Positions 9,001 to 12,000 of a stretch of 64,000 nt of DNA are shown one piece after another (the stretch's first letter is position 1; every line of letters begins with the position of its first letter). The stretch comes from an uncultured Candidatus Marinamargulisbacteria bacterium (GTDB lineage Bacteria; Margulisbacteria; Marinamargulisbacteria; SXXA01; JAHFDB01). The DNA is taken from the NCBI GenBank assembly GCA_964517775.1, contig CAZFCP010000001.1:115371-179370 (forward strand). Direction: 5' to 3'. The position numbers are program-made.

Positions 9001-12000
9001 AAAAAAGTAATTAATTGGGTGAATGAAGGGCTAAATGGTGTAAAAACAGCTCGACATTATGCTATTTAAAACACTATAGAATATTGAGAATTAATATGGG
9101 TACAGCGTGGACATATCAATAAAACGTGTCCATAATTCTTATATTTTTGGACACATTTCACACAAATCACCTATCTCCTTACCCTCAGTCCTTATCCTTA
9201 TCAAAAATTGTATGGAAATTCTTTAGCTTTGAAATACAAAAAGGAGAAAGGGGAGGAGAAAGAATCAAAAATTTCTCTATGTTCAATTTTTGATGGTGGG
9301 GCAATCAGGACAGAATTACGCTCCTAATCGGCTGCTATTTTACATTAATTTGTATTCGAAAGTGTTAAAAGTGGCCTAGTATAAACTTACACTCATGTTG
9401 TTTCTTCGAATATTACGGCATAAACTTTCTGATCCGGATTCATAAATTCTACAAAAACTAACACCCCATTTTTTCCAGGAAAAAGCCAAATTACATGCTG
9501 ATTAAGCAGAGTTTTTATTTCCTGAATCCATATCTTCATTTTTTGAACAAAAGTATCAAGATCTATATTTTTTCCAGAATACGGATTCCAAGCATGCAAA
9601 AAATCTTGGGTTTCCTGAAAAACAGATTCTAAATCTACTTCTAAGAGAAAGCCTTCTGTTCTTTGCTGCAAGTGGCTTAATTTTCCATTGCTGAAACTAC
9701 AAATTTTGGGTTCAGGATAATATTTAGGATTAATTTTTCTAATACTTTCCAGTATCTTAGTAAAATTCCAGTCGGTAGCATAACTTTTTCTTTTCTCTTC
9801 GTACTCCTTTCGATGAGCTGTTAGAGAAGAAAATGCTATTAATTCAAATATTTTTCTAAATTGAAGGCATAAAAACTCAATATCCGTAAACATCGACATG
9901 GTCTTATGGACACTTGGATTCAAAAGAAAATAGTCAATTATGTAGACTCTTTTTTTAATTTCTTCCATACAATCACAGTATTTTGACAAATCTTTTTGAT
10001 TGCTCATTTTTACCCCTTAAACAACTCAAACAACCGCACATTCAAAAACAAATTCTCCCGCCCAATTTTCTTTGATGAAAGAACCCCAATTTGTTCAAGC
10101 TGATACAGATATTCCGAAGCAGTTTGCCGCTTTACAATCCCTGCATCATCCAGAAATTTAACCTTACAATAGGGCTGTTGAAATAGAACTTCAATCAACT
10201 CTTTTGAATAAATCCGAGGCAACTCATTTTTTATTTTCTCACGAACTTCTTTCATCAAAGATTGAATCCCTTGAATCTTTGATATGGTTTCTTTTGCTGA
10301 GTATTCGATACAAGCCAACATATACAAAATCCAAGGCTCAAAGTCTTGTTCAAACGTCACACTACGCAATAATTTGTAGTAGGATTCTTTATTTTTGATG
10401 ATGTAGTGGCTCATATAAAGGATCGGCAAATCCAAAAGTCCCTGTTGAACGAGATATAGAACGTTCAGTATTCGCCCTGTACGCCCATTACCATCGTAAT
10501 AAGGGTGAATGGCCTCAAATTGATAATGAATCACCGCCAGTTTAATCAATGGGTCAATATCATCTGAATGAATATAATCTTCAAGATTTTTTAATTTATT
10601 TTGAATAATTTCTCTCCCAGAGGGAGGCGTATAGATTGTATCGCCATTTATGGCATTTTTTAGCGCTGTTCCAGGCAAGCTTCTTATGCCTGCATTATTT
10701 TTTAATAACTCTGCTTGAATGGCATTGATAACATTGGTGGTTAGCAATCCTCTATCCCTAAGTAATGAATGTCCTTGCCACAGGGCACTTCGGTACTGCA
10801 TAACTTCTTTTGCTGCAGGGCTTAGCTCTTGATCTGCTAGAGAAAGAGCTTGATATAATTCATCGGTAGTAGTAATGATATTTTCTATCTCAGAGCTGTA
10901 CTGGGCTTCTTTAAGACTCAAGGTATTAATGAATATGGTTTGGTTGGGAATGGTTTGAGCAAGCCCTTTTAATTCGCCCAACGCTTTATTAGCATTAATA
11001 GCCGCTCGTAGAATGGCTTTTGACTCGATATCTTGTTTGAGGGGTAGCTCAGGGAGCTCATTATAGGGCTTTTGGGGATCGATTTTCATAGAAAAATAAT
11101 ATGTCGATGCGATCGACATGTCAAGATATCGTGTCGATTTTTATTAAAAATTTCGACATATCTAGACTGGTGGGCCCACTAGGACTTGAACCTAGGACCA
11201 ATCGGTTATGAGCCGAGTGCTCTGACCAACTGAGCTATGGGCCCTTATAAAGACCGCCGGAGAAAACCCCTCCGGCAGCAAAACAGAGAACTATAAAAAC
11301 TCTCTAAGTGAATCGATTGTATCGGGCTGGCGAAGTTTTTCGATAGCCTTGGACTCGATTTGTCGGATACGTTCGCGGGTAACGTTGTAGATCTTACCGA
11401 CTTCTTCCAGTGTTTTTGGGACACCGTCTTCAAAACCGAAGCGAAGTTTTAGTACGCGTTCTTCCCTCTCGGTGAGTGTAGATAATACCTCATTTAGGGT
11501 TTGTTTTAAAGACTCGCGGACGATGTTTTTTTCTGGGGCGTCCTGGGTTACGTCTTCCACAAAATCGCCTAGAACACCGGATTCTTCTCCTACCGGCATT
11601 TCTAATGACAATGGGACTTGTGAAATACGAACAACCTCTTTAACGCGTTCCAGAGAAACACCGGATCTGTCCGCGATTTCCTGTTCGGTTGGTTTACGTA
11701 GGGTTTCCTGCATTAACTGACGGGAAACACGGCGAAGTTTGTTCATGGTTTCCACCATGTGAACCGGAACACGGATGGTTCTGGCCTGGCTGGCAATCGC
11801 ACGGGTAATGGATTGGCGAATCCACCATGTAGCATAAGTGCTAAATTTAAATCCTTTTTGGTAGTCGAACTTTTCTACCGCTCTGATAAGCCCTAAATTA
11901 CCTTCCTGAATTAAATCAAGAAATAAAATTCCACGGCCTGTATATTTTTTTGCGATACTTACAACCAATCGCAAGTTAGCAATCGTAAGGCCATTTCGGC

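Follow-up and report, generated by a model that had tools for sequence, protein, structure and literature searches.

Fic proteins of the SoFic type are toxic AMP (adenosine monophosphate)-transferases that are counted among the single-gene anti-phage defense systems, and control of their level therefore matters. How this control is achieved is the question raised by a SoFic-type Fic gene in a 64,000-nt stretch of DNA from an uncultured Candidatus Marinamargulisbacteria bacterium (contig CAZFCP010000001.1; hereafter the window, that is, the whole stretch analyzed). On the evidence presented below, the segment 11087-11158 of the minus strand, within a 75-bp control region in which a near-consensus promoter is combined with four copies of a 6-bp site, is very probably the promoter and operator of this gene, which would be repressed by Fic itself.

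Read on the minus strand from start to end, the segment is ctagaT-ATGTCGA-aatttttaataaaaa-TCGACAC-gatatc-TTGACA-TGTCGATcgcATCGACA-TATTAT-ttttct-ATG. This direct reading confirmed the promoter string given in a preliminary description of this DNA (TTGACA, spacer, TATTAT, ttttct and ATG on the minus strand), two other details of which needed adjustment. The palindrome that it reported as an 8/3/8 inverted repeat making up the 17-nt spacer is real, but the spacer by itself contains a 7/3/7 repeat, which becomes 8/3/8 once one adjoining base of each hexamer, the final one of the -35 and the initial one of the -10, is counted (11119-11101). Likewise, the second TGTCGA/TCGACA pair that it placed just upstream is present, with a spacing of N15 and not of N16. 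The tight, proximal pair overlaps the -35 and the -10 hexamers by one base each, and the wide, distal pair spans about -69 to -43 relative to the predicted transcription start. Together, the four half-sites are ordered forward-15-reverse-13-forward-5-reverse, with centre-to-centre distances of 21, 19 and 11 bp (Table 1). Inverted repeats thus overlap the -35 and -10 of the Fic gene's own promoter, which is what autorepression by a Fic protein that has a domain of the winged helix-turn-helix (wHTH) type calls for.

Table 1. Features of the Fic module and its control region, in positions of the window. ORF, open reading frame; tRNA, transfer RNA; pLDDT, predicted local distance difference test score.
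Feature	Positions	Strand	Details
Distal operator (predicted), TGTCGA / TCGACA	11158-11153 / 11137-11132	-	N15, 21 bp centre to centre
Distal-operator spacer, A+T-rich, 15 nt	11152-11138	-	About -63 to -49
-35 hexamer, TTGACA	11124-11119	-	Same in 8/9 relatives; the ninth, L166, has a sequence gap
Proximal operator (predicted), ATGTCGAT-cgc-ATCGACAT	11119-11101	-	Fills the -35/-10 spacer
Proximal core half-sites, TGTCGA / TCGACA	11118-11113 / 11107-11102	-	N5, 11 bp centre to centre
In-frame ATG within the palindrome, start of the 369-aa form (MSIAST), probably unused	11119-11117	-	
Spacer between -35 and -10, TGTCGATCGCATCGACA	11118-11102	-	17 nt
-10 hexamer, TATTAT	11101-11096	-	Relatives, same place: TATTAT, TATCCT, TATACT, TATTCT or TATTTT
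Gap between -10 and ATG, ttttct	11095-11090	-	6 nt
ATG, true Fic start codon and predicted transcription start	11089-11087	-	6 nt past the -10
SoFic-type class II Fic, 359 aa	10010-11089	-	Fic_N + Fic + SoFic-like_C (Pfam)
Recognition helix RQTASEYLYQLEQ, residues 321-333, begins R321-Q322	10091-10129	-	AlphaFold2 block pLDDT 86-94
204-aa ORF	9393-10007	-	2 nt after the Fic stop; own AAGGGG ribosome-binding site
tRNA-Met (CAT)	11168-11244	-	Directly upstream; 3' end 9 nt before the first half-site

The protein encoded downstream contains a Fic core, HPYYDGNGRTGR, at residues 195-206 (Pfam Fic, 2.5e-17), with a conservative change of F to Y at the third position. The inhibitory motif (S/T)xxxE(G/N) appears as SSEIEN at residues 65-70, in columns that are invariant in the alignment of homologs, and the C-terminal SoFic-like domain (PF21248, 3e-32) covers residues 288-363 of the long form. 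The protein matches the SoFic defense model of PADLOC (8e-120) and, over residues 5-354, the SoFic chains in PDB (E about 1e-105); its score with NCBIfam NF046030, 466 bits, lies under the equivalog cut-off of 550, making it a member of the family and not a certified SoFic equivalog. In the AlphaFold2 model, the winged helix comprises helices 296-302, 310-315 and 321-333 and a two-strand wing at 337-350 (10-residue block pLDDT 81-97), with residue 322 at the N-terminus of the recognition helix.

Motifs of the form TGTCGA-N(1-20)-TCGACA occur twice in the 64 kb, both of them here, against 0.02 expected from shuffles. The single hexamers TGTCGA and TCGACA are not enriched across the window (24 versus 20.9 expected), and four of the 24 fall within the 57 bp considered here. 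A search for a regulon gave no sign of one, as the 64 kb contain no further inverted pair of TGTCGA. The promoter, in turn, matches the consensus at 11 of 12 positions, the best match in the 3.5 kb scanned around it.

We compared the upstream DNA from nine distinct relatives with 67-90% protein identity, labelled Margulisiibacteriota or Marinamargulisbacteria (our loci L161/L162, L163, L164, L165, L166, L167, L168, L169, and L170). The -10 and the start codon are in register in all nine, and the -35 and the tight pair are visible in eight, the upstream sequence of L166 being broken by a gap. The wide pair is intact in six of them (L161, L163, L164, L165, L167, and L170) and partly recognizable in L168 and L169. 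Sequence variation within the tight pair is not spread evenly: the arms are invariant across relatives, whereas the centre triplet is cgc, tca, tga, aga or tat, and fixed arms around a variable centre are typical of sites bound by proteins rather than of RNA stems or coding sequences. The block appears in different contexts, following tRNA-Met in L161 and L165 (with different genes beyond), tRNA-Val in L163 and the transfer-messenger RNA (tmRNA) gene in L167; ARAGORN called no tRNA on L168, L169 or L170, and in L168 a tRNA-like 3' end (...ccacca) lies just upstream of the array. Among the proteins of the module only Fic is conserved, and the ORFs downstream vary or are absent: a membrane-like protein of 149/157 aa (L161, L163), an unrelated 209-aa ORF (L165), a DUF3892 protein (L166), a HAD-type hydrolase (L170), and no co-directional neighbor immediately after Fic in L164, L167, L168, and L169.

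Which protein reads these sites is indicated by a comparison of 160 homologous loci, in which the inverted hexamer repeated next to the gene and the initial residues of the recognition helix vary together. Thus, x-R-Q is accompanied by TGTCGA, R-K-T by TGTCCA, E/D-R-R-T-A-S-K by TGTACA, and S-R-I/V by CATGTA, and the flavobacterial helix L/P-K-T-V/A-G-N is paired with GAGAGTAA. Within the window's own clade, four R-K relatives (L165, L168, L169, and L170) carry TGTCCA/TGGACA; additionally, locus L171, with helix T-R-F, has TGTTGA/TCAACA at unchanged N5 and N15 spacings. Residue 322 is Q with TGTCGA, K with TGTCCA and F with TGTTGA. The same association emerged when 123 representatives with less than 90% identity were screened, without bias, for inverted repeats of any exact hexamer with a spacer of 5 or 15 within about 250 nt of either gene end: TGTCGA was found beside 37 of the 60 R-Q proteins and beside none of the 63 others, and TGTCCA beside 12 of the 41 R-K proteins. 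On a neighbor-joining tree built from residues 1-290 only, leaving out the winged helix, Q and K at position 322 switch at least 10 times, and the hexamer likewise at least 10 times; operator and residue 322 agree in 49 of the 51 taxa (Fisher p = 6e-10), and at least one of the two apparent exceptions, L098, carries both types of site. When applied to operon-embedded genes, the correspondence derived from the upstream sites also predicts the arrays that lie downstream of them. From 133 sites, the half-site consensus is A-Y-R-TGTCGA-T; all four half-sites of the window fit A-Y-R-TGTCGA and three have T at +1. TGTCGA-type sites accompany Fic genes across many phyla. We conclude from these sequence comparisons that the winged helix of Fic most likely recognizes the half-site A-Y-R-TGTCGA-T.

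SoFic itself (Shewanella oneidensis SO_4266, mloA) resembles the window protein in family and domain order; its residues 69-74, SSEIEN, are identical to residues 65-70 of the window protein, and its recognition helix, KRQTASVY, is of the same type. The SoFic promoter, in a 300-bp mloA fragment (Table S2 in bioRxiv 10.64898/2026.07.09.737422), reads TTTACA-TGTCGATTGAATCGACA-TAAGCT and is accompanied by wide TGTCGA pairs, sharing with the window the fusion of promoter and palindrome; it differs in a leader of ~44 nt, in which another pair of half-sites extends to the start codon, whereas the gap in the window is only 6 nt. Dimeric, and not monomeric, SoFic specifically binds the promoter-proximal 100 bp, and SoFic AMPylates EF-Tu (bioRxiv 10.64898/2026.07.09.737422); that work reports binding, not repression, defines no operator, and the words palindrome, inverted repeat and footprint are absent from it. 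Repression is documented for CccR of Yersinia pseudotuberculosis, a more distantly related Fic protein with a C-terminal helix-turn-helix whose dimer represses its own promoter via inverted repeats near the -35 and -10, as supported by a lacZ fusion, electrophoretic mobility shift assays, DNase I footprinting, isothermal titration calorimetry and operator mutations (PMC9755527). CccR shares with SoFic 29% identity over 45% coverage, and its operator, AGATAATCAT-N26-ATGATAATCT, is a single pair of 10-bp arms separated by 36 bp centre to centre (PMC9755527); the window operator, with four 6-bp cores at 11 and 21 bp, is not of this form. CccR is also an effector secreted by the type VI secretion system and targeting FtsZ, and nothing of that kind is indicated for the window Fic. 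By analogy, the window element would work like CccR, and it looks like the SoFic promoter.

Repression from within the module is also found in type II toxin-antitoxin operons such as phd/doc (Doc has the Fido fold), in which a repressor encoded by the module binds palindromes overlapping the promoter, a parallel also cited in PMC9755527. The window resembles these operons in that the operon of a toxic enzyme would be repressed from within, but it has no conserved separate antitoxin or repressor, and the toxin polypeptide itself contains both the DNA-binding domain and the inhibitory helix. For EcSofic, a defense protein of the SoFic family from Escherichia coli H397, whose helix AKRQTASTY is of the same type as that of the window Fic, the small downstream gene EcSofic-AS1 has been proposed to counter toxicity, in a study that covers neither DNA binding nor promoters (PMC12249575). 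AS1 has 47 aa, whereas the ORF downstream of the window Fic has 204 aa and is not conserved. As a separate matter, since many operon-embedded Fic genes are followed by arrays, we considered whether AS1 could be a hidden operator array; the enterobacterial plasmid homologs L172 and L173 (88.7% and 77% identity to EcSofic, respectively) have arrays upstream and none downstream, which lends the idea no support, and we dropped it.

The covariation, the SoFic promoter with the same fusion and the precedent of CccR together make Fic the most likely repressor. Repressor occlusion of a sigma-70-type promoter, as proposed in the preliminary description, is supported by the conservation of the block in the nine relatives, the covariation of operator and helix, and the reports that SoFic and CccR each bind their own promoter; of the two repressors considered there, Fic and its 204-aa partner, the covariation and the SoFic and CccR precedents favor autoregulation by Fic. 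In the mechanism that we propose, RNA polymerase carrying the housekeeping sigma factor would recognize TTGACA-17-TATTAT and begin transcription at, or within ~2 nt of, the A of the start codon at 11089, so that the mRNA would be leaderless. The winged helix of Fic, through the recognition helix at residues 321-333, would read the four half-sites, with the tight pair filling the -35/-10 spacer and the wide pair covering about -69 to -43; dimeric Fic on these operators would then exclude RNA polymerase, so keeping the toxic AMP-transferase low and self-limiting. The 204-aa ORF would probably be transcribed together with Fic. The sequence features, their conservation and the covariation with the helix come from our own comparison, and the binding of SoFic and CccR to their promoters comes from published work; repression of the Fic promoter in this organism, the transcription start and the stoichiometry are what we infer from this combination of evidence.

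Several observations weigh against this interpretation. Promoter matches of at least 11/12 number four in the window, against 2.4 ± 1.5 in shuffles, so the match alone is not beyond chance; we consequently rejected it as stand-alone evidence, and the promoter is called because of its conservation and not because of the strength of the match. Scoring was also done with the sigma-70 consensus, and the lineage's own promoter preferences may differ. In the R-K relatives, the tight pair has a degenerate right arm (TACACAT), and spacings of 11 and 21 bp cannot both suit one rigid dimer. Finally, binding of these sites by the winged helix in some role other than repression would produce the covariation as well.

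The second component of the proposed mechanism, a leaderless Fic mRNA, is supported less strongly than the operator, although we consider it probable. With TATTAT placed as -12 to -7, the A of the ATG falls at +1, and the gap between the -10 and the start codon in the window's clade is 6, 6, 6, 6, 7, 7, 7, 7, and 8 nt. The ATG at 11089 is taken as the conserved start because the ATG within the palindrome shares the reading frame only in loci where exactly 6 nt follow the -10. No Shine-Dalgarno sequence is present before 11089 in the window or at the corresponding place in the nine relatives, and in a crude scan 20 of 51 other ORFs of the window were preceded by GGAG, GAGG or AGGA. The leaderless start suggested earlier is thus plausible, from a conserved gap of 6-8 nt without a Shine-Dalgarno sequence, for a transcription start that is itself predicted.

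A less probable, yet still serious, explanation is that promoter and operators are real and that the mRNA is not leaderless, with expression from tRNA-Met/rpoD read-through or an atypical start, and a leader lacking a Shine-Dalgarno sequence. In its favor, the tRNA is encoded on the same strand, 43 nt before the -35; proteobacterial homologs, including SoFic, have leaders of 33-47 nt; and in L167 the start position is occupied by GTG, a poor leaderless start in many bacteria, while the ATG of the palindrome is in frame. The proteobacterial leaders and L167 also count against the leaderless mRNA as such. Conversely, the 6-8 nt gap is held in the nine relatives whatever lies upstream, including tRNA-free loci, and the relatives lack a Shine-Dalgarno sequence even though the host employs such sequences.

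That the palindrome at 11101-11119 is mainly an RNA hairpin terminating the tRNA-Met transcript appears improbable. A scan flags 8 pairs with a 3-nt loop, followed by ATTATTTTTC, and the region folds better than shuffles (-21.7 kcal/mol, z = -3.8); however, G-C pairs make up only three of the eight, L163, L164, and L167 lack the T-run, and the structure falls short of an intrinsic terminator. Moreover, the arms are conserved as sequence, without compensatory changes, the R-K relatives have a disrupted hairpin (ATGTCCA...TACACAT), the same sites exist where no tRNA lies upstream (L169, L170, SoFic), and the hexamer covaries with a protein helix. The palindrome may still have a secondary role as a terminator in the window. 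An Rfam scan of 10800-11400 detected nothing besides the tRNA.

Recognition of the operators by a different protein, either the 204-aa protein or a host regulator of the CRP/FNR type, is very improbable. The ORF for the former begins 2 nt past the Fic stop and belongs to no known family, so that its product may bind DNA, and the TGT...ACA symmetry at 11 bp resembles CRP sites. Nevertheless, the sites travel with Fic across many phyla and change together with residue 322, and the lack of another such pair in the 64 kb argues against any other binder, a CRP-like one included. The 204-aa protein had been proposed earlier as an alternative repressor, which we rejected: it has no homolog beside the Fic genes of relatives, although these keep the operators, and this non-conserved neighbor is an unlikely repressor. 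It has no Pfam, PADLOC or NCBIfam family, is a singleton cluster at 90%, and is unrelated to the ORFs downstream of Fic in relatives; it is probably co-transcribed cargo and not a conserved regulator.

The least probable explanation, that the palindrome is coding and the protein starts at 11119 (MSIAST, 369 aa), draws on the ATG being in frame in the window, L161, L164, and L167 and on several database entries called in this way, and is disfavored because this ATG, located inside the -35/spacer of a conserved promoter and without a Shine-Dalgarno sequence before it, lies 31-32 nt from the real start and out of frame in five of the nine relatives (L163, L165, L168, L169, and L170), most of the homologs listed have 358-362 aa, and the alignment with SoFic begins at query residue 5. 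The longer ORF does translate the palindrome, as noted in the preliminary description, reading MSIASTYYFSM, and equals the 369-aa database form P0001 (source ncbi); the same description's doubt that MSIAST is the real start is supported. All 15 of the short forms retrieved open with M-x-x-x-P/S/L...PYN, in agreement with the ATG at 11089, and P0001 is probably mis-started. Gene callers often choose the ATG of the palindrome, adding a false N-terminal extension MSIxSTYY (database proteins P0001, P0002, P0004, P0006, P0010, P0013, P0017, and P0020); the 369-aa forms beginning MSI[AQEV]STYY are translated palindrome, and the start of P0016 is the TTG of the -35 hexamer.

The arrangement of half-sites recurs in the family. 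In 35 non-identical TGTCGA-class upstream regions, the forward-to-reverse spacers are nearly only 5 (18 cases) or 15 (28 cases), N15 being the commonest wide spacing, and the reverse-to-forward spacers are 13 (35 cases) or 14 (8 cases), so that the array of the window is the commonest unit in this survey. The tight pair exactly fills a 17-nt -35/-10-like spacer in the window's clade, with 6-8 nt to the start codon, and also fills it in beta- and gamma-proteobacterial homologs, with leaders of 33-47 nt. In enterobacterial and Shewanella homologs, the right half-sites of the wide pairs are systematically TAAACA instead of TCGACA; in a Cedecea plasmid (L172:1272-1494), as well as in the SoFic promoter, the last wide pair ends in TAAACAT-G, overlapping the start codon.

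Fic genes without an upstream palindrome have a cognate array directly after the stop codon (L006, L013, L015, L019, and L081-L139). These downstream arrays are of the form tight-wide-tight, with TGTCGA or TGTCCA in line with the helix. One of them, in Janthinobacterium sp. CG3 (L015:5078-5230), lies in the order hsdM-hsdS-Fic-[array]-hsdR (Pfam), and SoFic-like proteins may control hsdR in type I restriction-modification operons. Tandem unlike arrays, TGTCGA followed by TGTCCA, are found after Fic in L132 (about 4090-4350), L090, L094, L130, L135, and L138; in L132 they are followed by a second ORF of 377 aa, and tandem arrays may represent two adjoining autoregulated modules.

Autorepression by Fic-wHTH proteins is already known, SoFic and CccR binding their own promoters, and the window is a new example of it, not a new principle; for the window itself, this is an ordinary, well-explained regulatory region. 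The TGTCGA operator sequence and the geometry of the array are not defined in the published work on own-promoter binding by SoFic and CccR, which includes a footprinted operator for CccR only. For the much larger SoFic group, our results predict an operator A-Y-R-TGTCGA-T with pairs at N5 and N15, as well as the helix residue that sets specificity, and they correct the start codon of the window gene and of several database entries. A wider generalization, taken as a whole, is only tentative: a re-targetable code common to the family, in which residue 322 sets positions 4-5 of TGTNNA, together with 11/21-bp arrays placed 19 bp apart, a leaderless unit and control of hsdR. If true, the alternating 11-bp and 21-bp pairs imply that Fic dimers bind in two ways or assemble along the DNA. 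Similarly, an array fused to a leaderless start would be a self-contained expression unit with no need for a host ribosome-binding site, which may help a defense gene to spread from one genome to another and to establish itself next to tRNA or tmRNA genes. Lastly, Fic may also control restriction in type I restriction-modification operons, of which L015 is the one annotated.

Around the Fic module, tRNA-Met is its left border, with rpoD and dnaG beyond it. The stop codon of rpoD is followed by a hairpin, GCCGGAG-N7-CTCCGGC (11256-11276, minus strand), and tRNA-Met begins 11 nt later; no separate promoter for tRNA-Met is evident, so the tRNA may depend on rpoD read-through. In the region 7745-11244, the part behind Fic encodes the 204-aa orphan, an ORF6N protein and a BrnT/BrnA toxin-antitoxin pair, and the G+C content goes down to 0.34 at 8-10 kb of the window. 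There is different cargo behind Fic at the tRNA- or tmRNA-adjoining loci L161, L163, L164, L165, and L167, and in L164 what looks like a cut tRNA-Val lies upstream of the Fic module. The module with its cargo looks like a variable island at an integration hot spot; no integrase or repeat of the tRNA end was found at the Fic module.

Two further promoter-like matches were found. A second promoter-like sequence, ATGAAA-18-TATAAT (10/12), lies at 11060-11089 on the minus strand, within the first Fic codons, and is probably fortuitous, since its TATAAT derives from the conserved P-Y-N codons. A perfect 12/12 sigma-70 consensus, TTGACA-16-TATAAT, is found on the minus strand at 7644-7672, between the plus-strand ORFs 6487-7536 and 7745-8326, with no obvious minus-strand gene for it to drive.

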